Sequence record: PQ850596.1
Strand: one strand, 5' to 3'
DNA: 43,870 nucleotides
Origin: Escherichia phage AnnaReinhart_Bas75
Shown here in pieces: positions 14,234 to 43,870 of the stretch. Under the pieces are notes generated by a model, which saw only the letters and a program-made list of their open reading frames with translations, searched no databases and was not told where the DNA came from. Positions within the stretch are counted from its first letter, which is position 1. The number at the start of each line of letters is the position of its first letter. The translations under genes and the position numbers were made by a program.

Positions 14234-14261
14234 AATTATTTCCTCAGTAAGTTACATGTGA

Positions 14262-14290
14262 ATAGTACCCTATTATATTGGGGTGTGCAA
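14262..14290 (-). promoter_or_regulatory. sigma70-like promoter TTGCAC-N17-TACTAT with AATAG-N4-CTATT palindrome
   Basis: Identical 29-bp core to 5139..5167; drives minus-strand cassette 14233..12484. Confidence 0.6.
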
Positions 14291-27072: not shown

Positions 27073-27260
27073 TTCGCCACCAGCACCAGCTCTTTACGCC
27101 CGAACGCCGTAACGTTACCCGTTACATCTTCGATAACCAGTTTACCGTTCGACTCGACGAACACCATATCAACGGCAACAGGACGACGGGTCTTAACGTT
27201 GAAAATCATGTCACCCGGTACGATGTCACGTGCTGGTTTGCGGTCGTATTCGTGTTTCAT
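27069..27260 (-). CDS. hypothetical protein (63 aa)
   Basis: Downstream of promoter 27295..27323; start overlaps VRR-NUC 3' end. Confidence 0.5.
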   Translation of the reverse strand: MKHEYDRKPARDIVPGDMIFNVKTRRPVAVDMVFVESNGKLVIEDVTGNVTAFGRKELVLVAK

Positions 27261-27579
27261 TTCTCAATTCCTTATATTGTTGGTGTATGTGCTTACTATA
27301 ATAGTCTGCTATTAGGGTGTCAATCTGTTTTATCGAACCAACGACAAAAACATTTGCACCACGTTTACGCATCCGCTCGTGCTCTCGTAACTGGTGCGGG
27401 TCTGGCTTCGTGTTTTCGTCTTTCTTAACCTCGACGAACCAGATGATGCCACCAGGGAGAATTACCAGCAGGTCGGGGGCGCCGGAGCGCCCCTCATAAG
27501 ACAGCTTACGAACGAGGCCACCAATGGCCTCGAATCGCTCTTTTGCGTATTTCTGCACGCGCCCCTCAGGCGTACTCAT
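27226..27579 (-). CDS. VRR-NUC domain nuclease
   Basis: 117 aa; PD-(D/E)xK-type core (GAPDLLVIL ... FVEVKK). Confidence 0.65.
   Translation of the reverse strand: MSTPEGRVQKYAKERFEAIGGLVRKLSYEGRSGAPDLLVILPGGIIWFVEVKKDENTKPDPHQLREHERMRKRGANVFVVGSIKQIDTLIADYYSKHIHQQYKELRNETRIRPQTST
27295..27323 (-). promoter_or_regulatory. sigma70 promoter TTGACA-N17-TATAGT with AATAG-N4-CTATT palindrome in spacer
   Basis: Minus strand reads TTGACA ccctaatagcagactat TATAGT; embedded in 3' coding region of VRR-NUC gene, upstream of 27069..27260. Confidence 0.55.
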
Positions 27580-30800: not shown

Positions 30801-30859
30801 CTTAATTTCTCGCTTTTAAGTTTCGTTTACTCCGGGAAGCTGCCCGGTCAGTGATTAGA

Positions 30860-32627: not shown

Positions 32628-33128
32628 TTATTCTTCTTCGAAATACTTGTTCTTGATTGCTGTCAAGCGTTCCAGGTATTCAGCCAGGTCTTCGTCTTTA
32701 ATCGCTGCAATCTTCATTTTCTTACCTGTGAACTCTTCCAGCAGTTCATCAGAATCATCGCACGCGGCATCGCTCGGACCTTCGTTAATTGCATCGTCGA
32801 TAGCCTGAATCTGGTCGCGCAGAGACTTATAGTCTACTTCTTCTTTCTCTTCTTCCGGCTCTGGCGTCGTTTCCTCTACTTTAGCTTTACGCGGCTTGCG
32901 TTTTGGCTTCTCTTCTTCTGCCGGTTTAGTGTCAACGATGTCTTCACCTTCTACCGGGATTTCTTTTGTTGCTTCTTCAGCGCACTCAGCTACCGCTTCT
33001 TTGGTGTACGATACCGTCTCTACTTCCAGCGGCGTGGCAACCTGAACAACTTGTTTCGCACTGTTCGCGGCAATCAGTTCGTGCGCAACTACGAAACGTT
33101 CCAGTAATACTAAGAATTTCTCTAACAT
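32628..33128 (-). CDS. hypothetical highly acidic protein (166 aa)
   Basis: Glu/Asp-rich with a central Lys/Arg patch; good RBS GGAGAATAAATAATG. Confidence 0.5.
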   Translation of the reverse strand: MLEKFLVLLERFVVAHELIAANSAKQVVQVATPLEVETVSYTKEAVAECAEEATKEIPVEGEDIVDTKPAEEEKPKRKPRKAKVEETTPEPEEEKEEVDYKSLRDQIQAIDDAINEGPSDAACDDSDELLEEFTGKKMKIAAIKDEDLAEYLERLTAIKNKYFEEE

Positions 33129-33152
33129 TATTTATTCTCCTGTTTATTTGGG

Positions 33153-33317
33153 CTACTCGCCGTCGCCTTCTGTAAGGCTATCGTCTATTAATTCAAATTT
33201 ACCGTTTGGGTGTTGAATAGCTTCTTGCCCGCAATGGTCGCAGACAACAAGTTTATCGAACCCATCAAACTCATCCCCTACTACGCAAGAAAGTACAAAT
33301 TTATGTTTTGTGCACAC
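33153..33317 (-). CDS. hypothetical small Cys-rich protein (start uncertain)
   Basis: Protein-like frame with paired Cys (SCVVG ... VCDHCG) downstream of promoter 33409..33437; only GTG at 33317 found as start and the frame stays open upstream. Confidence 0.3.
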   Translation of the reverse strand: MCTKHKFVLSCVVGDEFDGFDKLVVCDHCGQEAIQHPNGKFELIDDSLTEGDGE

Positions 33318-33408
33318 TTCTTGCGGAGCGCCGAAAATTGCTCGAAAACCTTTAGCTATGGCCCCAGTGATTGTGTTCTTATCTGCCCCTCTCGTTTGGT
33401 ATGGGCTA

Positions 33409-33437
33409 ACTATAATAGCGAACTATTCACATGTCAA
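33409..33437 (-). promoter_or_regulatory. sigma70 promoter TTGACA-N17-TATAGT with AATAG-N4-CTATT palindrome
   Basis: Minus strand reads TTGACA tgtgaatagttcgctat TATAGT; followed by conserved AAACGAGAGG leader. Confidence 0.6.
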
Positions 33438-33457
33438 TGGGCTTTTCTAAAATAATT

Positions 33458-33471
33458 AATATGGTACTATT
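33458..33471 (+). promoter_or_regulatory. second palindromic box (AATAT-ggta-CTATT) in divergent control region before the XRE gene
   Basis: Imperfect copy of the AATAG-N4-CTATT box 44 bp from the first; overlaps TACTAT that may be the -10 of the plus-strand promoter. Confidence 0.4.
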
Positions 33472-33501
33472 CACATATCAACTGACTAAGGAGTAATTGA
33501 C

Positions 33502-33717
33502 ATGCAACCATCTGAACTAGGCATCCGTGTAGAACAACGCCGCAAAGAACTCGGCATCTCCCAGCGCCGTCTGGCGGTCCTGGCTGGCGTTTCCCAGGGC
33601 GCGATTAACCAGCTTGCGCTCGGGGTAACTCAGGACGTCCGGCCGGCGACGCTGTTCAAGCTGGCGGAAGTGCTACAAGTAGACGCCAAGTGGCTGGCGT
33701 TAGGTGAAGGGGCTTAA
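33502..33717 (+). CDS. XRE-family (Cro/CI-type) HTH transcriptional regulator
   Basis: 71 aa; classic HTH_3 signature LGISQRRLAVLAGVSQGAINQLALG; AAGGAG RBS; only plus-strand gene inside the minus-strand replication module. Confidence 0.8.
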   Translation: MQPSELGIRVEQRRKELGISQRRLAVLAGVSQGAINQLALGVTQDVRPATLFKLAEVLQVDAKWLALGEGA

Positions 33718-33732
33718 AGCCCCTTTCTTTTT
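33707..33732 (+). terminator. rho-independent terminator AAGGGGC-ttaaa-GCCCCTT followed by TCTTTTT
   Basis: Hairpin overlaps the stop codon of the XRE gene; strong T-tract. Confidence 0.65.
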
Positions 33733-33734
33733 AC

Positions 33735-35942
33735 CTATTCCAAATCCTCCTCTGTCACCACCAGCATCTCATTTGGTTCGTATAGTGTCTTCGGCCTTAA
33801 TCTATCCCCTATTCTTTCGGGTATACGATATGTTCTCGGTACTACTTCGCCGTTAGCATCGCAACCAAGCATTAGTTCTCCATCTTTCAACATTTTATCA
33901 AGATGGGTGTTAGTCACAGAGAAGTCACCGGAACGAGCCACTATCTGCTGCTGAGTAAAACCGCGACCTGTGTCATCTGACTGTTGCAGGTCTTCCAGTG
34001 CCGAAAGTATTGACTCCTTCCTTACTTCATCCCTGCCGCGTTTAACTTCTTCCTTTACTTTTTGCTTACCTTCTTTCGTCAACCCTTCTTCCCGCTCTTT
34101 CTCCTCGTCAGTTTTGAACGGCTCGAAACCCCACGGCATCAACACAAGCGCCTTGTGTGGTTCAGGAAGGTCCAGGTTTACGATTGTGCCGTATTCTTCT
34201 GTGCCCCCCAGGAACTCAACCGCACGGTACTCTTTCGGCGGCGGAGCTTCGCGGAACTGCACAGACTCCAGCACCATGCCAACCGTTTTCTGTTGAGGAC
34301 CGTGCTTAAATTTCGAGTGGTATACGTTTATTTGACGGTCGGTTGCACGTTCGATTGTCAGTTCCACGTCAACACCCGCATACAGCGCCCCACTGCCGCG
34401 TGCTTTCTTTCCACCCTTCGGCGTATGGTGGACAACGCCTACTGCGGCTTTAGTTGCATCGCGTACTTCTTTCAGAATGGCGATAACTTTACCCATGCCG
34501 ATTGCTGTTGATGAACTGTTCTCGTCGAACTTATCAATCGTCAGTGCCAGGGTCTGGTTAAGGGTGTCGAACGCAACCATGCCAATTGGCTCGTCGCCAG
34601 CAGTTTCGCGCATTAACTTAATCAGGCTTTTAAGTTTGCCGACTTCGCCCATATCGATGACGTGTACATAATCTTTACCTTCCCCGCCATATTTAGCCGC
34701 TAGTGCATCAATACGGGTGCGTGTAGCTGCGCCACCCTCACCATCAATATAGAAATGGTGGCAACGTTGGGTGTCAGCCCCCGCAAACCGGTACCCGGCG
34801 GCGCTCAGGTACATCATCCCCAGCGTATAGAATGATTTGTACGTGCCGGATTCCCCGACAATATCCCAGATACAATCCGACGGCATGTACCCCTCAACGA
34901 CGAAATCAGCCTTTACCGGTTCTGGTAACTCGTCCTCTTCTTCAAGGTCTTCCAGCGTGCAAGTTACAGGCTCCTCGTTCTCTGTGCGGTGCAGTTCTTC
35001 AATCTCTTCTTCCGGTAAATCAGGCAGAGCCGCACGAATGCTGTTAATACTGATAGGTTGCTTGTCTACGTTAAGCTCGTCTGGCAGGCCGCACATACGC
35101 AGGGCCAAATGCTGTCGGCGGTTAAGCTCGGTGCAAGCGCCGTTGTTTGTATGCTGGCAGACAAAGCGCACTTCTTTACCGTCGAGCATTATGCTGGTGG
35201 AGCCCTTGCCTGTATGCAGATGTTCGTTAGGGCATGGCACTTCGTACCCGCGCCCGGAAGATAAAGCGTCAAGGCCAAGCTCGGCTTCGCAGAAGTGTGC
35301 TATATCCGCGTTAAGCCCATGCTCATCAGCGGCAAGTGTTTTAGCCTCACGCTTACGCAACCCCATCTCTTCGGCTTTCTTGATGTACCGCTCGGCACGG
35401 ATAACACGCCCTTCTGTAACCGTTATCTTCGACTCTTTGTGCGGCAGGTAGATAAGGCGGTTGCCATCTTCCGTGCAGTGGTCGCGCAACGCTTCGTCTA
35501 TTTCTAACTCTGCACAAATAGCACGTTGCACCATCCACGCGTCGTTAGAGTTAAACGGCGTGCGAGCTGGAACCAGAACGCGGAAAGCGTAATCTCCGTT
35601 TTTACACACATGCTGATGCGATGCCGTTGTATGCAGAATATTGAAGAACGGTGCGTTCTTGAATTTGCGGGTAAGGTCGCGGTACTGAGTACGGTTGAGA
35701 TGGTCAAAATCGAACTTAACCACACTGTCTTCCAGAATAGCGTTCTTACGGCGACCGCCAACAGGCGCAATAGCTTTCTGTTTAATCTTGGCCGCGTCGT
35801 ACTCTTCCTTAGTCCATGACGGGTCCACGGATAAACGCTTCGATGTATCGCAGACATACTCCACAAACTGCTCGAGCGGCATCTCACGCGCTACAGGGTT
35901 TTTATCGAATGTGTTACGCAGCGTTGCAAAAACAATATTCAT
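33735..35942 (-). CDS. DNA primase/helicase (P-loop NTPase)
   Basis: 735 aa; Walker A GESGTYKS; RecA-like region with VVHHTPKGG; size and position typical of phage primase-helicase. Confidence 0.6.
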   Translation of the reverse strand: MNIVFATLRNTFDKNPVAREMPLEQFVEYVCDTSKRLSVDPSWTKEEYDAAKIKQKAIAPVGGRRKNAILEDSVVKFDFDHLNRTQYRDLTRKFKNAPFFNILHTTASHQHVCKNGDYAFRVLVPARTPFNSNDAWMVQRAICAELEIDEALRDHCTEDGNRLIYLPHKESKITVTEGRVIRAERYIKKAEEMGLRKREAKTLAADEHGLNADIAHFCEAELGLDALSSGRGYEVPCPNEHLHTGKGSTSIMLDGKEVRFVCQHTNNGACTELNRRQHLALRMCGLPDELNVDKQPISINSIRAALPDLPEEEIEELHRTENEEPVTCTLEDLEEEDELPEPVKADFVVEGYMPSDCIWDIVGESGTYKSFYTLGMMYLSAAGYRFAGADTQRCHHFYIDGEGGAATRTRIDALAAKYGGEGKDYVHVIDMGEVGKLKSLIKLMRETAGDEPIGMVAFDTLNQTLALTIDKFDENSSSTAIGMGKVIAILKEVRDATKAAVGVVHHTPKGGKKARGSGALYAGVDVELTIERATDRQINVYHSKFKHGPQQKTVGMVLESVQFREAPPPKEYRAVEFLGGTEEYGTIVNLDLPEPHKALVLMPWGFEPFKTDEEKEREEGLTKEGKQKVKEEVKRGRDEVRKESILSALEDLQQSDDTGRGFTQQQIVARSGDFSVTNTHLDKMLKDGELMLGCDANGEVVPRTYRIPERIGDRLRPKTLYEPNEMLVVTEEDLE

Positions 35943-36067
35943 TTCTTTTTCTCCGCACGTTCTAAGGCTTCCTGCATACGGCGCATTGCGCGGTTCATCT
36001 TTACCGGTGCGAAGAAGTCAGCGCCGTGTTTCTGGCGGCGTAGCTGTGGAACTATTAACTTTGTCAT
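35939..36067 (-). CDS. hypothetical small basic protein (42 aa; unlisted)
   Basis: AAGGA RBS; stop overlaps primase ATG (ATGA). Confidence 0.35.
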   Translation of the reverse strand: MTKLIVPQLRRQKHGADFFAPVKMNRAMRRMQEALERAEKKK

Positions 36068-36136
36068 TGTATAATCCTTATGCTTACTTTGATGATTTGT
36101 ACTTTAGCCCCGACGTTCTGGCGTTGGGGTTTCTTT

Positions 36137-36427
36137 TTACCGTTTAGCCAACCCTTCCAGCAAATTTTTATACTCTTCAAAATATTCCTCGACCAAATCA
36201 TCGCCGAAATAGAAGTCGATATACTCGAGATTATCTCTTACGTTAAGCGATGCCGACATGGTGCTTAGTTGGCGTAAGCTAATTAGCTTCATTTCTGTTT
36301 CTACGCAGAAAGGCCGGTAGGTATCAAGATGGCAAGAGATATTGAAGCATAAAGCGAACTCTCCGGCCACGGAGTGAACCATATACACTTCGTTTTCTGC
36401 TTTATTGTGGAAAATTACGCCTTTCAT
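36137..36427 (-). CDS. hypothetical protein (96 aa)
   Basis: Start overlaps stop of upstream HTH gene; acidic C-terminus. Confidence 0.5.
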   Translation of the reverse strand: MKGVIFHNKAENEVYMVHSVAGEFALCFNISCHLDTYRPFCVETEMKLISLRQLSTMSASLNVRDNLEYIDFYFGDDLVEEYFEEYKNLLEGLAKR

Positions 36428-36606
36428 TTCACGTTCTCCTTAATCCATGCTTCGACTTTATTACGGTCAAATGTTCCCGGTAAACGGCGGCCCATAACCT
36501 TAATACAGCAGTCAGGGAATTTGCCGCTGCGCAACCAGTTATTAATCGTCTGACGTGTCACCCCGATACGTTCAGCTACTTCATTCTGCGTCATATAATG
36601 CGACAT
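36424..36606 (-). CDS. AlpA/excisionase-type HTH DNA-binding protein
   Basis: 60 aa from ATG 36606 (CAGGAGATATAAAAATG); motif TQNEVAERIGVTRQTINNWLRSGKFP. ORF-track version extends to 36720 but lacks RBS. Confidence 0.6.
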   Translation of the reverse strand: MSHYMTQNEVAERIGVTRQTINNWLRSGKFPDCCIKVMGRRLPGTFDRNKVEAWIKENVK

Positions 36607-36703
36607 TTTTATATCTCCTGTTTGTTTGGTGAAACTGAGTATAGGATAGCGGGAATGTAAAAGCAACCAATCTCTGTAATATTTAATCTTTACAAAAATG
36701 TTA

Positions 36704-36733
36704 TTGAAAGTTCTTGACACATGTTTGTATAAT
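36704..36733 (+). promoter_or_regulatory. candidate sigma70 promoter TTGAAA-N18-TATAAT
   Basis: Good -35/-10 with 18-bp spacer; no protein-coding gene follows for about 350 bp. Confidence 0.4.
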
Positions 36734-36757
36734 GGTTTTGGGACTTGTATATATTAC

Positions 36758-36795
36758 GGAGTTGACGAACCCTCCCCGAGGGATTCGTCAACTCC
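36758..36795 (+). other. long inverted repeat / RNA hairpin (17 bp stem with one bulge, CCC loop)
   Basis: GGAGTTGACGAA-CCCTC ccc GAGGG-a-TTCGTCAACTCC read directly from sequence. Confidence 0.6.
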
Positions 36796-36932
36796 TCCCA
36801 GACAGCTGAGATGCTTGCCTTGGGGTTTAAGGATAAGTGTATCTAAATCTCATTTAAAGAAGTAACCCGCTGAAATATCTACTGTTTCTTAATGTGCCGT
36901 AGATTCGCAACCGTAAAAATGTAACGATTATT

Positions 36933-36955
36933 GGGCAGGCTTAAGCCTGCCCTTT
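36933..36955 (+). terminator. hairpin GGGCAGGC-ttaa-GCCTGCCC followed by TTTAGTT
   Basis: Perfect 8-bp stem, plus-strand orientation, in a non-coding region. Confidence 0.5.
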
Positions 36956-37024
36956 AGTTACCAAGTAATAAGAATAAAGGCACAACCCTCCCCGAAGAAT
37001 CACAACGGCAACGTAACTATTCTC

Positions 37025-37053
37025 TTGCACACCCCAATATAATAGGATACTAT
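37025..37053 (+). promoter_or_regulatory. sigma70-like promoter TTGCAC-N17-TACTAT with AATAG-N4-CTATT palindrome
   Basis: Near-identical to 5139 and 14262 copies; followed by CGAAACGAGA leader, AGAGGAG RBS and ATG 37088. Confidence 0.6.
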
Positions 37054-37087
37054 TCACTTATCGAAACGAGACAGAGGAGTGGTGGTT

Positions 37088-37279
37088 ATGTTTAAGAAGG
37101 GTCAGTTGATTAAAACGATGTACGGTAGCTTAGGTATTATTGAAAAGAAATCGGCAGTGTACCGAAGTTCTTATGTCGTTAGCTTACTCAGGGAGCACGG
37201 GTTAAGTTCCGCGGCGTATTACCAAGAGTATGAAATGAAACTAATTGGCAACAATTTTAAATTCAAAGGGGTGAAGTGA
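37088..37279 (+). CDS. hypothetical early protein (63 aa)
   Basis: First gene after promoter 37025; RBS AGAGGAG. Confidence 0.5.
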   Translation: MFKKGQLIKTMYGSLGIIEKKSAVYRSSYVVSLLREHGLSSAAYYQEYEMKLIGNNFKFKGVK

Positions 37280-37494
37280 TGGAAGAATTAATTTGTATTG
37301 AATCCCGCCAGGATGTGCAGGATTGGTTTGTGAAAGGTAACAAATATTCGTCAGGAGTATATTACGACGGCCGTCGATACGTTTTAGATGAAGACGGTGA
37401 TGAATGGGATTTAGAGGACACTGTGGGCGAGACTTTAACCGTTAGTTTTCTTCAATGTTGTTTCCGCATCATTCACAACGGCGCCGAATCATGA
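37279..37494 (+). CDS. hypothetical early protein (71 aa), acidic
   Basis: ATG overlaps upstream stop; RBS AAAGGGG. Confidence 0.5.
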   Translation: MEELICIESRQDVQDWFVKGNKYSSGVYYDGRRYVLDEDGDEWDLEDTVGETLTVSFLQCCFRIIHNGAES

Positions 37495-37526
37495 TGCTCG
37501 TGCCGACGACTCTGAGGGAGGTTGCC

Positions 37527-37751
37527 GTGAATAATATTTTAATTGTGGGGGTTGATATGAGTCCATATAACCAATTCCGCCTTGAGCGTCTACGTCGCGG
37601 ATTAAGTAACGCTAAATTAGCTCTCGATATATGGGAGAGTACGCCATATTTTTCCTCGAAGGCCTGGTATGTAGCTCGCGCTAAAGCGTCCGTACAGTAC
37701 CGCGAGTATAAGTTAAACAGTTTCCTTAAACACCACGGGGTAGCGTTATGA
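37527..37751 (+). CDS. hypothetical early protein (74 aa)
   Basis: GTG start with strong GAGGGAGG RBS; ORF-track version starts upstream at 37455. Confidence 0.45.
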   Translation: MNNILIVGVDMSPYNQFRLERLRRGLSNAKLALDIWESTPYFSSKAWYVARAKASVQYREYKLNSFLKHHGVAL

Positions 37752-37891
37752 GAGAAGCATTCGAACGATGGGCCGTCGTAGAGGGTCTGCCGGTTAACAA
37801 GGGTTTAAAGAAAGAGTACCTGAACGTTAAGACGCGTCTTGCGTGGCGGGCGTGGAAAGCTGGTGCGCAAGCTGTGATGAATAAGGGGTGA
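37748..37891 (+). CDS. hypothetical early protein (47 aa; unlisted)
   Basis: ATGA overlap with previous gene; ends 3 nt before the next ATG. Confidence 0.35.
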   Translation: MREAFERWAVVEGLPVNKGLKKEYLNVKTRLAWRAWKAGAQAVMNKG

Positions 37892-37894
37892 TTT

Positions 37895-38089
37895 ATGGGT
37901 AAGTGGATTAAGTGTAGTGAGCGGATGCCGGGTGACTTTGAAGATGTCCTGGTTTCGGATGGGGGTAACGTCGAGGTGATGTGGTGGGACTGCGACGGTT
38001 TCTGGGATTGTTGGGCGCCGCGCAACTCAAACATCGATATAGACGATGTGACTCACTGGATGCCGTTACCTGAGCCGCCAGAAGTGTGA
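37895..38089 (+). CDS. DUF551-like small protein
   Basis: 64 aa; Trp/Cys/Asp-rich with WIKCSERMP ... HWMPLPEPP pattern resembling DUF551 as I recall it. Confidence 0.45.
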   Translation: MGKWIKCSERMPGDFEDVLVSDGGNVEVMWWDCDGFWDCWAPRNSNIDIDDVTHWMPLPEPPEV

Positions 38090-38232
38090 TGTTATATTGT
38101 AACAATAGTTTGGGATTTTACTGAGTGACTTACGCTGCTACACAGCAGCGTACAACTTTAGATTAGTGTCGTCAAAAAGCGACACTTTCACCAAACGCAA
38201 CAATCGAAGTGACTATTGCAGGAGACGCAACA

Positions 38233-38400
38233 ATGATTACTAAAGAACAAGCGCAATCATTATATGATGCGATTATCGCAGTTGCAGAGGCACACGCGGA
38301 CTACGCAACAGCGGATTACTATAGTGTTGACGACGCTGGGGGTAGGAAACGCGAGGCCGAGACAAATTTATGGGATGTGTTGCAGAGGATGACCTCGTAA
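38233..38400 (+). CDS. hypothetical early protein (55 aa)
   Basis: AGGAGA RBS before ATG 38233. Confidence 0.45.
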   Translation: MITKEQAQSLYDAIIAVAEAHADYATADYYSVDDAGGRKREAETNLWDVLQRMTS

Positions 38401-38440
38401 CCTGTCCCGTGGTGACAATACAAACACCAATAAAATTTAC

Positions 38441-38469
38441 TTGCACACTAAGATAGAATAGGCTACTAT
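38441..38469 (+). promoter_or_regulatory. sigma70-like promoter TTGCAC-N17-TACTAT with AATAG-N4-CTATT palindrome
   Basis: TTGCAC actaagatagaataggc TACTAT; followed by ACAAACGAGAGGAG leader and ATG 38501. Confidence 0.6.
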
Positions 38470-38500
38470 TCATTTACACAAACGAGAGGAGAGACGGAAG

Positions 38501-38650
38501 ATGGTTACTTTGATGGTTATGGAATTCGAAAACAGCGTAGCAACTTACCGCGAGATGACTATGGCGCAGGCGTATCACCTGGCCTCAAACGGCAACTTCT
38601 ACAAGGCGCAAATCATCAATGAGTTCGGGGTAATTGACTATGAATTTTAA
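38501..38650 (+). CDS. hypothetical early protein (49 aa; unlisted)
   Basis: GAGGAGAGACGGAAG RBS region then ATG; overlaps start of next gene. Confidence 0.4.
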   Translation: MVTLMVMEFENSVATYREMTMAQAYHLASNGNFYKAQIINEFGVIDYEF

Positions 38651-38912
38651 CAGTTACACCGTGACCGTTGATTTTGAGGGGCTGGAGTTGCCCCTCCCCA
38701 ACAACTACAGATATATAACACGTGACCGTTTCGGTTTTATCCAGGGGTGGCGGAACAAACCAACAGACACTGAGTTCGGGATGTCAGGAGGAGAAGAGTT
38801 GCCGATCACTTTCGGGCATCAGAGTAGTAATGAAAAACTTAAAACTGTGATTCGTAAGTATCGACGCCGTGGTAATACCGGGCTTATAGCGATAACCGGC
38901 GCTGTTGAGTAA
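38640..38912 (+). CDS. hypothetical early protein (90 aa)
   Basis: ATG 38640 overlapping upstream stop. Confidence 0.5.
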   Translation: MNFNSYTVTVDFEGLELPLPNNYRYITRDRFGFIQGWRNKPTDTEFGMSGGEELPITFGHQSSNEKLKTVIRKYRRRGNTGLIAITGAVE

Positions 38913-38931
38913 ACGGGAGGAGAGACAGAAG

Positions 38932-39618
38932 ATGAGTAACAAAAACGAAGTATTCGAGTACCTGATTGACCAACTACGTCAGCAGGTAAATAACAACCAG
39001 TGCGAAGACCTGGCGCATGAGGTGCAGTCACTTAAGAATCAGTTACGTGATGCGTCGGCGCTGGTGGCGGAGTTGCAGGAAGACAACATTAAGAAATCTG
39101 AGCACATATCGCACCTGTCGGAACTGGTGGACGAGTTGATGGGGACTATAACGTTAATGAACGGGGACGTTGAGGCTTACAAAGTTCTACGCAAATGTGC
39201 GTGCGCCTATGGGCAATCCGGTTGTCGCGACGACGCCGCTCATATCGAGAAATCGTGGATTGAGCACGCTGGCGCCGCATGCCCTGTACCGGACGATACT
39301 GTTGTTGATATTAAATTCCGAAACGGCAAAATGGAAAGTAATACCAAAGCGCTATGGTGGAGTTGGGGCCTAAATGGCGGACCATACGAAATTGTTGCGT
39401 ACCGTGTTGCCGCGCAACAATGCAATAAGGACGATACTCGTGAGTGCGCGCATGATTGGGTGCTGGACGAAAAAGGGGACTACTTCATTTGCGCTAAATT
39501 CGGTAAGCAAGAAGCTGACTTAATTGATTGCCGACACACTAATACCGTCGGTTTGCGTAAGGGCTTTGCGCCGGGGTTTACTAAAAAGTGTCTGGATTGC
39601 GGGGCTAAACTGAAATGA
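38932..39618 (+). CDS. hypothetical protein with N-terminal coiled coil and C-terminal Cys-rich domain
   Basis: 228 aa from ATG 38932 (GGGAGGAGAGACAGAAG RBS); about 12 Cys in C-terminal half (CACAYGQSGC ... CPVPD ... CLDCG). Confidence 0.55.
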   Translation: MSNKNEVFEYLIDQLRQQVNNNQCEDLAHEVQSLKNQLRDASALVAELQEDNIKKSEHISHLSELVDELMGTITLMNGDVEAYKVLRKCACAYGQSGCRDDAAHIEKSWIEHAGAACPVPDDTVVDIKFRNGKMESNTKALWWSWGLNGGPYEIVAYRVAAQQCNKDDTRECAHDWVLDEKGDYFICAKFGKQEADLIDCRHTNTVGLRKGFAPGFTKKCLDCGAKLK

Positions 39619-39818
39619 CCAGCATCCTCTTTATCTGGGTACTGTCCGCAGGCCAGATGCAACTGGCGGCAGCAGAAACGTTTTATTCGATGGAGGCGTG
39701 CCAGTCAGCGGCACGCGCCGCAGAGAACGCGCACTTCCTGTTTCAGGGCGACAAGCCAAACGATTCAGAGGTACGCGCTATCTGCTCACCTAAGCGACTT
39801 GGTAAACAGGAGAAATAA
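39615..39818 (+). CDS. small secreted protein (67 aa) with signal peptide
   Basis: N-terminus MTSILFIWVLSAGQMQLAAA resembles a Sec signal peptide; two Cys in mature part. Confidence 0.45.
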   Translation: MTSILFIWVLSAGQMQLAAAETFYSMEACQSAARAAENAHFLFQGDKPNDSEVRAICSPKRLGKQEK

Positions 39819-39819
39819 C

Positions 39820-40005
39820 ATGGTACAGAGATACGATGTATGGTGCATAGAAGATATTTTTAAGAATAGCCACGACGGTAGCTATGTTAAATACGAAGAC
39901 TACGCGAAACTCGAAGCCGAGTTGCAGAAATACAAGGACCAGTTTCCTGATTACGTTGAGTGCGCGAACTGTGGGTCAGTTACACATGTGGAGGGGGTGG
40001 AGTGA
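39820..40005 (+). CDS. hypothetical protein (61 aa), CxxC pair at C-terminus
   Basis: CAGGAGA RBS; ECANCGS motif. Confidence 0.45.
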   Translation: MVQRYDVWCIEDIFKNSHDGSYVKYEDYAKLEAELQKYKDQFPDYVECANCGSVTHVEGVE

Positions 40006-40286
40006 TGTCTCTTGCAACTGACATCCTGAAACGAAGCGGCCTTGCGCCGCTGTCACCGAAAGTTAAGACGCGAGCACGTAACGCAACTTACAAGGAACTG
40101 GCAGAACGGCGTAAAGCTATCCGCGCCTGTGGATTCCAGAACGGGAAGGCCGTTAACCTCGGTGAGTTTAAAACACAGGAACGCGCGGCAATCGCTAATC
40201 GGTTATTTAATTACTGGAAATCGCTGGGATACGAGGATATTCCGACGAAACCACAGAGACGACAGTACATCTGGAGACACAAATAA
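40005..40286 (+). CDS. hypothetical protein (93 aa)
   Basis: ATG overlaps previous stop; GAGGGGGTGGAG RBS. Confidence 0.5.
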   Translation: MSLATDILKRSGLAPLSPKVKTRARNATYKELAERRKAIRACGFQNGKAVNLGEFKTQERAAIANRLFNYWKSLGYEDIPTKPQRRQYIWRHK

Positions 40287-40361
40287 ACCGTTATTAAGAT
40301 AATTCCTACCCGTGGTATCCTCCAGTTACTGCATACTTAATACGCACCTGGAGGATTCATC

Positions 40362-40670
40362 TTGGATAAATTTACTGAAACAGTGACTGGGTGGCTTCTG
40401 GCAGCCGCACTAGCTGGTGGGGTAATCGGACTACGACAACATAAGTCCGCTATTTCCGGCCCTATCGACGGCTTCTGCTTTATTGCAACTGGCTTCACTT
40501 GCGCCGTATTTGGCGCACCTCTCGCAGCTCAATGGTTTGGAATCACGGGCGACCGTGAAATCGCAGGCCTGGGCTTCATTATCGCTATTCTCTGGATGCC
40601 TATCTATTCCCGTCTGTCCGGTATCGTCGCCGGAGAATACATCGCACGTCGAGGAGGCCCGGATGAATGA
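40362..40670 (+). CDS. holin (three predicted transmembrane segments)
   Basis: 102 aa; three hydrophobic stretches and charged C-terminus; CTGGAGGA RBS; immediately upstream of endolysin. Confidence 0.6.
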   Translation: MDKFTETVTGWLLAAALAGGVIGLRQHKSAISGPIDGFCFIATGFTCAVFGAPLAAQWFGITGDREIAGLGFIIAILWMPIYSRLSGIVAGEYIARRGGPDE

Positions 40671-40935
40671 GTTATTCTGGTTCTGCGGTATGCTGGCAAT
40701 CGGAGGCACATCGCTGTTTAATGTGTATCATCCCAGCGTTGACGACGGGCTATTTGGCCGGGTGCTCTATATCCTGACTGCTATTGTCTGCGCCGCAGGA
40801 TGTATCCACCTGTTACAGGGCAGCATGTCTCCGACGCTGCCTGAGACATTAATCACATTAGTTGCGCTGCGCCAGATTCGTCAGGCGTGGCTGTCATACG
40901 GAGGACATAAGCGTGTCTCGAAATATTTCAGATAA
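40663..40935 (+). CDS. second lysis-associated membrane protein (two TMDs; holin or antiholin candidate)
   Basis: 90 aa from ATG 40663 (GGAGG RBS); two hydrophobic segments; overlaps both neighbours. Confidence 0.45.
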   Translation: MNELFWFCGMLAIGGTSLFNVYHPSVDDGLFGRVLYILTAIVCAAGCIHLLQGSMSPTLPETLITLVALRQIRQAWLSYGGHKRVSKYFR

Positions 40936-41398
40936 TGGATTGCATTTCACCGCTGCGTTCGAGGGATTCCGCGGAACTGCATACCGCGCTACGCCGAACG
41001 AGAAGTACCTGACTATCGGGTACGGGCACTATGGGCCGGACGTAACCCCGGGTAAGACCATCACACCGGGGCAAGGCCTCCTGTTACTGAATCGTGATAT
41101 GGCTAAGGCCGTAGCTGCGGTTGACGCAGCAGCACACCATTCATTGACACAGGCACAGTTCGATGCAGTGTGCGACCTGGTATACAACGCAGGTGCTGGT
41201 GTGATTGCAGCTGCTACCGGCACAGGAAAGGCGCTGCGTTCTGGTGACATCGCGACACTGCGGGCTAAACTGGCGCTGTTTATCAACCAGAACGGCAAAC
41301 CGTTACTTGGTCTGCGCCGCCGTACTGCCGGGCGTCTTGCACTGTTTGACGGCAAGCCGTGGCAGGAGGCGGAGGCCATTGGGAGGGCTGTTAAATGA
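40913..41398 (+). CDS. endolysin, phage lysozyme (GH24 / T4-lysozyme-like)
   Basis: 161 aa from GTG 40913 (GGAGGA RBS); N-terminal catalytic region FEGFRGTAYRATPNEKYLTIGYGH resembles the E...D...T lysozyme core. Confidence 0.75.
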   Translation: MSRNISDNGLHFTAAFEGFRGTAYRATPNEKYLTIGYGHYGPDVTPGKTITPGQGLLLLNRDMAKAVAAVDAAAHHSLTQAQFDAVCDLVYNAGAGVIAAATGTGKALRSGDIATLRAKLALFINQNGKPLLGLRRRTAGRLALFDGKPWQEAEAIGRAVK

Positions 41399-41487
41399 CA
41401 GAGTTTGACTTCATTTTCCTGGCTATTGGAGCTGGTGCGATAGCTGGCGCGATTTGGGGTGTGATTGACGCTCTCCGTAAAGGTTGA
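41395..41487 (+). CDS. small hydrophobic peptide (30 aa) coupled to endolysin
   Basis: ATG overlaps endolysin stop (ATGA); single Gly/Ala-rich TM-like helix. Confidence 0.35.
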   Translation: MTEFDFIFLAIGAGAIAGAIWGVIDALRKG

Positions 41488-41553
41488 CACCTAAGACTAA
41501 TCCGACGATACTTAAATCACCTCCTGTTCCATCCCTCTGCTCTCCAGTTTTAT

Positions 41554-41583
41554 CCCGGCCCTGACCCAGCCGGGATTTTTTTA
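41554..41583 (+). terminator. rho-independent terminator CCCGGC-N9-GCCGGG followed by ATTTTTTT
   Basis: 6-bp GC stem plus 7-T run after the lysis cassette. Confidence 0.7.
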
Positions 41584-41604
41584 TCTATTTTCTGCAATGA
41601 CTAG

Positions 41605-41633
41605 TTGACTATTACCTACGACCCTATTATATT
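41605..41633 (+). promoter_or_regulatory. sigma70-like promoter TTGACT-N17-TATATT
   Basis: Followed by CGACAACGAGAACGGAG leader similar to those after promoters 37025 and 38441. Confidence 0.5.
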
Positions 41634-41729
41634 TACTCCATCGACAACGAGAACGGAGTAGAGAAGATGAGTAACGTACAGACAATCGCAATAACCGAGG
41701 AACTTGAAGCCAAATGTATCGCATAGACT

Positions 41730-41915
41730 ATGGGTAATGACCTGGTTGCTATGCGTAAATTTCCAATGAAAATCACAGATACCGAAGCATTCAAAGACGC
41801 ACAACTGATGGCGCGTATCGCCGTTAGTAACCTGAGCCGCAATATCCCTGCGGATGCGTTCTGGTTCGCTGCTATGCAGACACTGAAAGCAGCTTATGCA
41901 GGAGAGAAGAAATGA
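41730..41915 (+). CDS. hypothetical protein (61 aa); possibly continuous with upstream 19-codon ORF 41667..41726 across an in-frame TAG
   Basis: ATG 41730 lacks an RBS, while ATG 41667 has a strong one and is in the same frame, separated by a single TAG. Confidence 0.4.
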   Translation: MGNDLVAMRKFPMKITDTEAFKDAQLMARIAVSNLSRNIPADAFWFAAMQTLKAAYAGEKK

Positions 41916-42064
41916 CAGTCTATGTCGTAGAAGGGCGTAACGAATATGAAGACCCCGAAGTATTGGGTGTGTTCGGCGCCGAGGAATCGGCGAAGCACTT
42001 TGTTGACATGGAACAGGGCACTTACGACTTTTTCTCAGTTACAGAATGGGAGGTACAACAATGA
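41912..42064 (+). CDS. hypothetical protein (50 aa; unlisted)
   Basis: ATGA overlap with previous gene; GGAGAGAAG RBS. Confidence 0.35.
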   Translation: MTVYVVEGRNEYEDPEVLGVFGAEESAKHFVDMEQGTYDFFSVTEWEVQQ

Positions 42065-42219
42065 GTGAACAAGGACCAGTAAGCCAACCATTACGGGTAG
42101 GCCGTAAAGTCAGTAACACCCCGTTCCCGTCACGCGAGGAACTGATGAAACGCAACAGTTTCCCCGGGCCGGACAAGAACAAGTATCTTAATCGCATGTG
42201 GGGAGAGCGTAAAGAATGA
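42061..42219 (+). CDS. hypothetical protein (52 aa; unlisted)
   Basis: ATGA overlap with previous gene; GGGAGG RBS. Confidence 0.35.
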   Translation: MSEQGPVSQPLRVGRKVSNTPFPSREELMKRNSFPGPDKNKYLNRMWGERKE

Positions 42220-42401
42220 CTGACCGCGAATATGAAAAGATGATGGTTGAGGCCGTTAACAGCGGCGTAGACATCGGACACGTGATGCGCGTCCTGAATA
42301 CTAAAATCGCGGTAGCCGAGCAAATGGTGGAGTCGCTTTATGAGACGCGCCGCGAACTGATTAACCGCTTCAACCTGAACAAAGGTGACACCAATGCCTA
42401 A
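42216..42401 (+). CDS. hypothetical protein (61 aa)
   Basis: ATGA overlap; chain of translationally coupled small ORFs. Confidence 0.45.
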   Translation: MTDREYEKMMVEAVNSGVDIGHVMRVLNTKIAVAEQMVESLYETRRELINRFNLNKGDTNA

Positions 42402-42693
42402 AATCACAATTGCATCGCTCGAGCGCCGTATTATGGTGCTTGAGTCGGAGAAACAGACGTTAGGCGGGCAACTGTCAATTAACGGTGAGTTTCAACTGGA
42501 GGCGTATAAAGAACTTCTAGAGGCGTTTAAAGAGCTACAAGCCATCGCGTCTGACATAGAAAATATGATTGGATTGTTGCAATCCGGGGAGTGGGCCGAA
42601 CACTGCACTAAATCGGCGTTAGGAAAACGGCTTGAGACGGAGATTACTGACATGCTGAGTTGTCTTGTTGAGGCGCCAGATGAGCACGCCTGA
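42394..42693 (+). CDS. hypothetical coiled-coil protein (99 aa)
   Basis: ATG 42394 inside listed ORF 42385..42693; overlaps previous stop. Confidence 0.45.
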   Translation: MPKITIASLERRIMVLESEKQTLGGQLSINGEFQLEAYKELLEAFKELQAIASDIENMIGLLQSGEWAEHCTKSALGKRLETEITDMLSCLVEAPDEHA

Positions 42694-42862
42694 GCCGGTA
42701 GTTATCGATGGCGTCCTGTGGAAACCTTACTCGGTTAACCACATCGACGCCGATGGGAAGAAGTTCAGTTTCTACATTTTTGCGATTAGCCGTGAGCACG
42801 CTGCGTGTGTAGTAGACGATATACGAGAAACGGCGTGGCTTGGCGATGAGATAGTGGGGTGA
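42680..42862 (+). CDS. hypothetical protein (60 aa)
   Basis: ATG 42680 with GAGG RBS. Confidence 0.4.
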   Translation: MSTPEPVVIDGVLWKPYSVNHIDADGKKFSFYIFAISREHAACVVDDIRETAWLGDEIVG

Positions 42863-42949
42863 GAGCATGAGTCTTGAGGCGGTTATTGGTCTTGTAGTGG
42901 CAAGCTATTTTATCGGCGTATTGGTTGGTTTTGTGTGGGGTCGAAAATA

Positions 42950-43231
42950 ATGGCGCGTACTGTTGCATCGAGATTCACTGATATTGAATCTGCGATAGAA
43001 GAGGCCGTCTATCGTAAATATGCAAACGCCAGTGAAACACAGAATTACGGTGTTATCTCGGTCAATGGCATGTTCGAAACACGCAGGGTGCGCGCTTGTC
43101 GACCGCAAGAGTTTATATGGTCTACAGAGGGGTTGGTTCCTCGGTGCCTCGTTCTTACTAACGGCAGCCATACGGTGTTCGTAGACCTGGATAAGAAAGA
43201 CATAACGGTTACTAAGGGAGAGATTAATTGA
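42950..43231 (+). CDS. hypothetical protein (93 aa)
   Basis: ATG 42950 inside listed ORF 42935..43231. Confidence 0.45.
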   Translation: MARTVASRFTDIESAIEEAVYRKYANASETQNYGVISVNGMFETRRVRACRPQEFIWSTEGLVPRCLVLTNGSHTVFVDLDKKDITVTKGEIN

Positions 43232-43464
43232 TTACCAGCATTCCTAACCTTATTAAAGAATTTGGCACGATGGCGGAGACGTGCCGACAAACAGGCCTCA
43301 ACGAAATGACGATTGCGAAGTACAGCAAAGACGTGAAATGCGAGCGCCATGTAATTTATAATAACCGCCTTATGACGCACGTTAAGACAAGCCCGGTGTT
43401 ATTCACGCGCCGTGGTATCACTAAAACAGAGCAACGCATTGCGCGAGAGGAGAGCGGGGAATGA
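43228..43464 (+). CDS. hypothetical protein (78 aa)
   Basis: ATGA-type overlap with previous gene. Confidence 0.45.
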   Translation: MITSIPNLIKEFGTMAETCRQTGLNEMTIAKYSKDVKCERHVIYNNRLMTHVKTSPVLFTRRGITKTEQRIAREESGE

Positions 43465-43733
43465 TTGAATATGATAACTACCACATAAACCGGTGTGAGG
43501 CACTTGAATTTTTGTCCAGAAACTTCCACGATTTCCCAGAACACATGCCTAATGTACGCGAAGTTGCGGAGGGTATTTCCGAGAACATATTCAAAGGCTG
43601 GCGATTCGTCGTTATTGATTCTGGTGAGTTGGTTTTCGCTGATTGCCTTTCACCATGTATTCGTAAAATAGACCTTGAGGAATTTAATGCAACTTTTAGT
43701 CTTTCCGAATGCCTGGGTTATAGCGGTAGCTAA
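43461..43733 (+). CDS. hypothetical protein (90 aa)
   Basis: Start overlaps previous stop; followed by terminator at 43793. Confidence 0.45.
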   Translation: MIEYDNYHINRCEALEFLSRNFHDFPEHMPNVREVAEGISENIFKGWRFVVIDSGELVFADCLSPCIRKIDLEEFNATFSLSECLGYSGS

Positions 43734-43792
43734 CGACCATTACGGCGGCGACGGTAAACGAGCGCCACGCCACGGCCTATATAACTGATACA

Positions 43793-43814
43793 AGCCCTCT
43801 ACGGAGGGCTTTTC
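43793..43814 (+). terminator. rho-independent terminator AGCCCTC-tacg-GAGGGCT followed by TTTT
   Basis: 7-bp stem, tetraloop and T-run after the last small gene. Confidence 0.6.
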
Positions 43815-43870
43815 TGTACATCCCGCCCAATCCCCTTATATAATCCCTTTAGACGCGTAGGGCGCGTCTG

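Follow-up and report, generated by a model that had tools for sequence, protein, structure and literature searches.

A conserved block heading four presumed early transcripts of a Kagunavirus phage most likely belongs to the initial transcribed region of its promoters

The window, by which we mean the whole stretch of 43,870 nucleotides analysed here (Escherichia phage AnnaReinhart_Bas75, PQ850596.1), is the essentially complete genome of a Kagunavirus (Guernseyvirinae) siphophage. Its segment between 36500 and 39500 is 99.8% identical to Escherichia phage VerenaMeyer_Bas76, and parts of the same segment are also matched by 394 further Escherichia and Salmonella phage records. Many phages of the Kagunavirus group are under study as therapy candidates. 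The gene blocks of the window and the promoters and leaders that are the subject of this work are collected in Table 1.

Table 1. Features of the 43.9-kb window, with positions counted from its first nucleotide (SD, Shine-Dalgarno sequence; transcription starts are predicted).
Feature	Position	Strand	Details
Structural genes	1-24.5 kb	+	
Replication block	24.7-36.8 kb	leftward	
Small genes and lysis genes	37.1-43.7 kb	rightward	
P3 promoter	33409-33437	-	type A core; -35 TTGACA 33437-33432, -10 TATAGT 33414-33409, spacer 17 nt
P3 predicted start	A33402	-	
P3 block	33397-33390	-	AAACGAGA, about +6 to +13
HTH_3 protein	33502-33717		Pfam
HTH_17 protein	36427-36606		Pfam
Terminator	36933-36952		about 70 nt upstream of P1
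P1 promoter	37025-37053	+	type B core; -35 TTGCAC 37025-37030, -10 TACTAT 37048-37053, spacer 17 nt
P1 predicted start	A37060	+	
P1 block	37064-37071	+	AAACGAGA, about +5 to +12
P1 SD and start codon	37074-37079; 37088	+	GAGGAG; ATG
P2 promoter	38441-38469	+	type B core; -35 TTGCAC 38441-38446, -10 TACTAT 38464-38469, spacer 17 nt
P2 predicted start	A38476	+	
P2 leader	38480-38500	+	AAACGAGA (38480-38487) fused to the SD, giving AAACGAGAGGAGAGACGGAAG; ATG 38501
Relic of the P2 leader	38911-38934	+	AAACGgGAGGAGAGACAGAAGATG, promoter-less, before the internal MSNKNEVFEY gene
Intrinsic terminator	41553-41590		immediately upstream of P4
P4 promoter	41605-41633	+	-35 TTGACT 41605-41610, -10 TATATT 41628-41633, spacer 17 nt
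P4 predicted start	A41640	+	
P4 block	41645-41652	+	cAACGAGA, about +6 to +13; AACGAGA 41646-41652
P4 SD and start codon	41655-41658; 41667	+	GGAG; ATG

A sequence-only reading of this genome had reported that the same short block recurs in the transcribed leaders behind four promoters. All four copies were found, each of them behind a sigma70-type promoter; the sequences of the blocks had been given correctly, while two of the strings begin at 37062 and 41642 and not, as was stated, at 37060 and 41645. P3 agrees with the sigma70 consensus at 11 of 12 positions and the hexamers of P1 and P2 at just 7 of 12, and the call of P1 as a promoter therefore leans on conservation, spacing and gene orientation. 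The 17-nt spacer of P1 holds the repeat AATAG-N4-CTATT and over 20 distinct relatives have kept this promoter; an alternative -10 close by, a perfect TATAAT at 37038-37043, comes without any -35 and could move the P1 start about 10 nt upstream. The 79-nt P2 cassette is present in 116 phage records, all of them Kagunavirus-like, and conservation of the P4 promoter extends to relatives and to Salmonella phage Jersey.

In all four promoters the seventh base after the -10 hexamer is A, which would place the block at about +5 to +13 of the transcript; we infer the transcription start positions as well as the early status of these transcripts. The -10 hexamer is separated from AAACGAGA by 10 nt in P1 and P2 and by 11 nt in P3, and from AACGAGA by 12 nt in P4. 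A GGAG-type SD follows the block at 0-2 nt in every one of these leaders, and in the plus-strand leaders (P1, P2 and P4) the ATG stands 13-16 nt past it. The P3 leader, which in most relatives reads AAACGAGAGGAGAGAAACAAATG, has in the window a minus-strand block without a usable start, AAG occupying 33380-33378 where relatives have ATG. On the strand opposite to the leaders just tiny and doubtful ORFs are found that could offer a coding explanation.

The first ORF of the P3 operon (33378-33380 to 33153, minus strand) thus carries AAG for the ATG seen in the related loci L107, L021 and L026. Its product is small and contains Cys and His residues, and the ORF may be inactivated in the window or may begin at a later GTG (33317).

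Other features lie near the leaders. Within 36704-36958 (plus strand) a near-consensus promoter (TTGAAA-18-TATAAT) and the terminator upstream of P1 bound a transcript of about 215 nt that has no convincing ORF, begins with a long 5' hairpin and folds much better than its shuffles (z = -4.6). The corresponding position of fBC-Eco01 has an annotated promoter and terminator, that of Jersey an annotated promoter, and we regard the transcript as a candidate non-coding RNA running antisense to the start of the leftward operon. The segment 41484-41592 (plus strand), downstream of the lysis genes, contains in this order a promoter-like site, TTGACA-17-GATACT, an unstructured C/U-rich stretch with the anti-SD CACCUCCU (AUCACCUCCUGUUCCAUCCCUCUGCUCUCCAG) and a strong intrinsic terminator; the transcript could be an sRNA or a 3'UTR. 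The TTGACA of this site overlaps the stop codon of an unlisted 30-codon ORF, MTEFDFIFLAIGAGAIAGAIWGVIDALRKG, situated directly past the endolysin gene (41395-41487, plus strand), whose hydrophobic product is possibly a small protein of the membrane or an accessory to lysis.

Genome-wide counts of the block carry little weight by themselves: 5 copies of AAACGAGA were counted where 1.5 are expected, with 2 of 100 shuffles as high, and 11 copies of AACGAGA where 5.6 are expected, with 7 of 100 shuffles as high. Nine promoter-proximal leaders were compared, those of P1-P4 and of five further promoters (P5, 30888-; P6, 27323-; P7, 14290-; P8, 33466+; P9, near 5150-). In an unbiased k-mer count AACGAGA was the most widely shared 7-mer, present in four of the nine, and this degree of sharing was reached in 3 of 5000 composition-preserving shuffles of the nine leaders. 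A Markov model trained on the phage's own purine-rich ribosome-binding site (RBS) regions gives an expectation of 0.03-0.04 for AACGAGA in the nine leaders, against 4 observed (P ~1e-7), and AACGAG, found in the same proportion of leaders, is absent from the 40 nt upstream of all 65 other mapped gene starts in the window (Fisher's test, P = 1e-4), all of these results on placement being subject to the caveat that the four leaders are paralogous cassettes and the draws hence non-independent. For each of the four leaders taken singly, a shuffle contains AACGAG with a probability of 1-4%. The leader shuffles, the RBS model and the other gene starts therefore go against the view that the motif is no more than purine-rich RBS regions would yield, which had been named as the finding that would overturn the proposal, and the suggestion of a shared cis-block extending beyond the SD purines is borne out.

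Related loci were collected from IMG/VR with the pattern of the promoter core only, the leader having no role in the selection, and this core scan combined with BLAST within the fetched loci yielded dozens of orthologs per cassette. In 70 distinct promoter-proximal leaders of the relatives the gap between the -10 hexamer and AACGAG is 11 or 12 nt only, whereas ten different spacings, from 8 to 17 nt, occur between AACGAG and the start codon; the register of the block is tied to the -10 hexamer, with the -35 at 17 nt, and not to the ATG. Within the orthologous sets the per-site fraction differing is 0.04-0.09 for the promoter, 0.03-0.04 between the -10 hexamer and the motif, 0.00-0.05 for AACGAGA and 0.05-0.23 from the motif to the start codon. 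Variability is thus low and equal across the promoter, positions +1 to +5 and the block, which within each set is conserved no better than the rest of the promoter, and it rises 2-5 fold just past the block. This jump indicates that the conserved promoter module, which begins at the -35, stops at the 3' edge of the block.

Outside the genus, the P1 ortholog of Jersey has TGCGAT for its -10 and different flanks, yet AACGAGACA is found in it at an unchanged distance. Jersey has the block at two more rightward promoters, and its P3 ortholog has AAACAGGAG instead. A scan for more P1 orthologs of the Jersey type by the start of the downstream gene returned Jersey only, together with unrelated coding sequence. 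In Cornellvirus SP-031 the promoters are different and the leaders only loosely similar (AACGGAGATAGAGA, AAACAGGAGG), and the block therefore appears to be confined to Kagunavirus and Jerseyvirus. About 13 leader classes can be distinguished across the family, six of them with AACGAG, three or four with CCAACAAT at the same register and one with TTAAACAGGAG; what the leaders of the family share most generally is AAC at about +6 to +9.

In the phage studied here the block is missing from the five other promoters, P5-P9. The string AAACGAAA in the P5 leader, located after a 5' hairpin (about 30826), was considered as a further copy and rejected, since this segment is variable in relatives. In the place where AAACGAGA would stand the P5 leader (30826-30853, minus strand) has a conserved 5' stem-loop, CCGGGCAGCTTCCCGG, a different leader design that is possibly a 5' stabiliser; the gene that follows encodes a Gp2.5-like ssDNA-binding protein.

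The family core of these promoters, TGAATAGTnnnCTATTATAkT, includes the inverted repeat AATAG-N4-CTATT and occurs in two orientations, type A in P3, P5 and P6 and the inverted type B in P1, P2, P7, P8 and P9. The block keeps its orientation and register behind cores of type A (TTGACA/TATAGT) as well as of type B. Sites with the core were located at 14251-14290, 37036-37064 and 33452-33481; the first of them contains plausible -35/-10 pairs on both strands between the divergent genes 14233(-) and 14398(+), which suggests overlapping bidirectional promoters.

Conservation of each cassette extends from about -45 to the ATG, and the gene that follows changes: the first genes belong to 15 families behind P2 (38 copies), 7 behind P3 (22 copies) and 9 behind P4 (26 copies). 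Where a new gene with the RBS TAAGGAATTTAGAAATG has been inserted behind P1, AAACGAGAcA remains at the promoter and the displaced MFKKGQL gene retains only GACAGAGGAG...ATG. The MSNKNEVFEY gene stands directly behind P2 in some genomes (L087, L096) and is internal in at least eight other contexts, among which the block is kept in one relic context only. The relic found in the window overlaps the stop codon of the upstream gene and has changed to AAACGgGA; promoter-less copies of the block are also present in L033, L069 and L011. The loss of the block at internal sites and its retention at promoters imply that the genes are expressed internally without need of it.

Two small genes, 38501-38650 (DUF7170 protein) and 38640-38912, lie between P2 and the MSNKNEVFEY gene, and the two copies of the P2 leader that flank this pair (38501-38934) are the mark left by an insertion through recombination at the leader. 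Another recurrent RBS cassette, TAAGGAATTnAGAAATG (27260-27277, minus strand, and many related loci), precedes unrelated genes in different genomes and, in several of the variant leaders, directly abuts AAACGAGA.

Hybrid leaders with their junction at the block exist as well, for example tcagttatcgaAACGAGaggagaga at the P2 position, and the first genes MGWYGSW... and MYKYLTVEK... are found behind differing promoter and leader variants. As the same block is present in several cassettes and in many genomes, it comes to lie at the swap junctions of the first genes of early operons, and a role of the block as a marker of the recombination junctions of swapped first genes is in part shown by these data.

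AAACGAGA is a real, non-random and widely conserved block heading four presumed early transcripts. Most likely it forms part of the initial transcribed region of the promoter, carried in a recombining promoter-leader cassette, and no special operator. We estimate at roughly one half the probability that it forms the conserved core, at about +5 to +13, of an escape-friendly initial transcribed region serving at the same time as an unstructured 5'UTR, a reading to which its position, the conservation boundary, the composition of the leaders, the behaviour on gene replacement and the likeness to T5 and T7 leaders all point. The block would then belong to early-promoter cassettes of Kagunavirus and Jerseyvirus phages that are served by the host RNA polymerase (sigma70) and would act in cis, with no dedicated partner. 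The first 20-25 transcribed nucleotides, almost U-free and purine-rich, would allow fast promoter escape with little abortive cycling, and the same purine-rich leader would leave the adjoining SD unpaired. Of the two functions proposed earlier, an initial-transcribed-region signal is accordingly favoured, as it better accommodates the register with the -10 hexamer, the position at the 3' edge of the promoter block and the persistence of the motif when RBS and gene are swapped; for a translational operator no support was found.

The composition of the leaders is consistent with the escape-friendly reading. The purine content of the first 25 nt is 76-84% in the four block-bearing leaders versus 48-64% in the other leaders, one U or none precedes the SD, and the block-bearing leaders, at only -2 to -5 kcal/mol, fold less stably than their shuffles. 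Purine content is known to correlate with productive yield, and GG and GA dinucleotides favour escape (PMC5961368). The native purine-rich initial transcribed sequences of N25 and A1 support facile escape (PMC12464699), and in their pyrimidine-rich 'anti' versions productive synthesis is about 10-fold lower owing to backtracking and abortive release (PMC12464699; PMC5961368). The weak point of the reading is that the escape effects known so far need a certain composition or certain dinucleotides and not one octamer; they leave the exact conservation of the C in AAACGAGA unexplained, and CG dinucleotides were reported to be unfavourable near +5/+6 in some promoters (PMC5961368). Also counting against it are the five promoters of this phage that do without the block, the promoter-less copies, the low consensus match of P1 and P2 with the possible shift of the P1 start, and the fact that within each orthologous set the rest of the promoter is conserved equally well.

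The exchange of genes behind the cassettes raises the possibility, which we consider less likely, that the block has no function of its own and that the paralogous cassettes are simply kept alike by recombination or gene conversion, both between cassettes and between co-infecting phages. Whole cassettes from -45 to the ATG would then be conserved as such while the genes downstream differ, as is the case; P2 and P3 have a 16-nt block in common (CAAACGAGAGGAGAGA) and P1 and P4 share ATCGA(C)AACGAGA, the hybrid leaders mentioned above are joined at the motif, the same first genes recur behind varied promoters and leaders, and in the orthologous sets the motif is no better conserved than the flanking promoter. 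Duplication of whole cassettes alone, however, cannot explain the sharing, because the register of the block is the same behind cores of opposite orientation. The block has also been kept in Jersey P1 despite divergence of the -10 and of both flanks, promoter-proximal copies persist where internal copies decay or are lost, and the sequence 3' of the block, though part of the same cassette, varies 2-5 times more. The concerted evolution of cassettes that recombine may nevertheless account in part, or wholly if the block has no function of its own, for the persistence of the block.

The closeness of the block to the SD, which follows it at 0-2 nt in each of the four leaders, and its restriction to the heads of presumed early operons, might alternatively be taken to mean that it is a recognition site on early mRNAs, such as a translational operator, a target of an antisense or anti-SD sRNA, or a nuclease site. 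We consider this unlikely. The start codon lies anywhere from 8 to 17 nt away, control of this kind would be limited to the first gene of each operon, and the genes work from RBSs that lack the block. C/U-rich stretches resembling an anti-SD do occur in the candidate non-coding transcripts (41513-41552 and about 36790), and there is a weak Rfam match to a family of toxic anti-SD sRNAs (E = 0.39, below the gathering score). Pairing of the block with the C/U-rich candidate RNA at 41513-41552 was rejected all the same: the block-bearing leaders rank high, yet 13.5% of shuffled seeds form duplexes that are equally good. The leaders have no stable structure and belong to no Rfam family, the search of 33000-43870 at E <= 1 having returned nothing for them and only two weak unrelated matches. 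In the same search no boxA/boxB or structured RNA match was obtained that would point to nut/put antitermination or to a sigma-dependent pause, and TAnnnT is absent before the SD in the near U-free P1 and P2 leaders.

The proteins and the ribosome give no further hint of a reader at the RNA level. Pfam searches with ten early or regulatory proteins identified two HTH DNA-binding proteins as well as DUF551 and DUF7170, and gave no match to an RNA-binding domain; the majority of the early proteins belong to no family at all. No complement of AAACGAGA, AACGAGA or AACGAG is present in E. coli 16S rRNA, where only the GGAG that follows the block pairs with the anti-SD, and a role of the block as an SD or as an rRNA-complementary enhancer was rejected on this ground as well as by the variable distance to the ATG and by its absence at internal RBSs. 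It is similarly improbable that AAACGAGA is a class-specific element read by a putative phage factor that would switch the four main early operons off or on together. Such a reader might be a small RNA, or else a protein whose target is RNA polymerase, the nascent 5' end or the DNA at +5 to +13; if this reading is true, the initial transcribed region would encode a new kind of signal and not a passive sequence that eases escape.

A DNA site bound by a phage HTH regulator that represses or times the early promoters appears quite unlikely. Two small HTH proteins are encoded beside the promoters (Table 1), +5 to +13 is a classical roadblock position and the block is conserved within the promoter module; it is, though, a single octamer, neither palindromic nor repeated. 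The spacer repeat AATAG-N4-CTATT, present in every promoter including those without AAACGAGA, is a far better candidate, and this palindrome is likely to be the operator for the HTH_3 or the HTH_17 protein. Finally, it is extremely improbable that the block is shared by chance, as a consequence of purine-rich ribosome-binding regions: the leaders are indeed purine-rich and the genome-wide enrichment is merely modest, but this explanation was rejected on the strength of the shuffles, of the absence of the block at every other gene start examined, of its presence in the 70 related leaders and of its conservation in more than 100 genomes.

The leader strings are absent from the searchable full-text literature, and our literature search found no transcription start or transcriptome data for Guernseyvirinae; the block itself is unreported in the searchable literature, and the phenomenon is of a known kind. 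In practice, the series of -10, 11-12 nt, AACGAG, SD and ATG provides a landmark for the annotation of early promoters and their probable starts, which applies to the 116 Kagunavirus-like records with the P2 cassette and to at least Jersey among the related Salmonella phages. If the escape-friendly reading is true, a compact natural promoter-leader-RBS module would join a small set that includes T5 N25 and T7 A1.

The core that precedes the block has been described in Kagunavirus fBC-Eco01 as the PHIRE 'phage promoter' consensus tgAATAGTa-ccTATTat-T (PMC9825357), annotated 22-28 nt upstream of first genes. The annotation covers the core and leaves the leader block out. The core was ascribed to a phage RNA polymerase (PMC9825357); the hexamers fit sigma70 and the annotation of the close relative Bas76 lists no RNA polymerase gene, which corrects this attribution. 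The block recalls SDs, translational enhancers and RegA-type operators in that it adjoins the 5' side of the SD in several early mRNAs; it differs from them in being dispensable for genes that have been moved to internal positions.

Closer parallels are offered by the early promoters of T7 and T5. T7 A3 starts with ATGAAACGACAGTGAG, in which AAACGA stands 10 nt past the -10, the register of P1 and P2, and T7 A1 starts with ATCGAGAGGGAC, whose initial ATCGA is also found at the start of P1 and P4 and whose CGAGAGGG is found in P3; the initial sequence of A1 supports facile escape on several promoters (PMC12464699). This likeness extends over 6-8 nt between promoters without shared ancestry and could be coincidental. 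The first gene of T7 lies about 175-425 nt downstream, which puts the initial sequences of A1 and A3 outside any RBS. The PN25 family of T5 consists, as here, of strong early promoters for the host RNA polymerase in several paralogous copies, and its -10-plus-leader segment is annotated as a multi-copy repeat. The 26-nt N25 leader, ATAAATTTGAGAGAGGAGT...ATG, is purine-rich into the SD just as the Kagunavirus leaders are. The sequences differ, T5 having TTTGAGAGAGG in place of AAACGAGA; the effect on escape has been measured in T5 and is inferred in the Kagunavirus phage, where, unlike in T5, the block is an exact octamer across promoter cores of two orientations.

The arrangement of the cassettes in the genome may be compared with the PeSL elements of T4-type phages, which are likewise short and highly conserved early-promoter cassettes (Arbiol et al. 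2010, PMC2839356; Comeau et al. 2014, PMC4122927). PeSLs border small, non-essential and hypervariable genes and are the junctions of insertions, deletions and replacements (PMC2839356), as the Kagunavirus cassettes are. Of the features of a PeSL, a multi-copy conserved sigma70-like promoter and variable-gene junctions were found here. The terminator that enters its definition there, as promoter plus stem-loop terminator (PMC2839356), was not found as a regular component, being located upstream of P4 and P1 only, with none at P2 and P3. The slots behind these early promoters are hot spots of gene turnover and hence a place to seek host-takeover and anti-defence genes, and the unit conserved in front of them differs from a PeSL in that it takes in the leader and the RBS up to the ATG.
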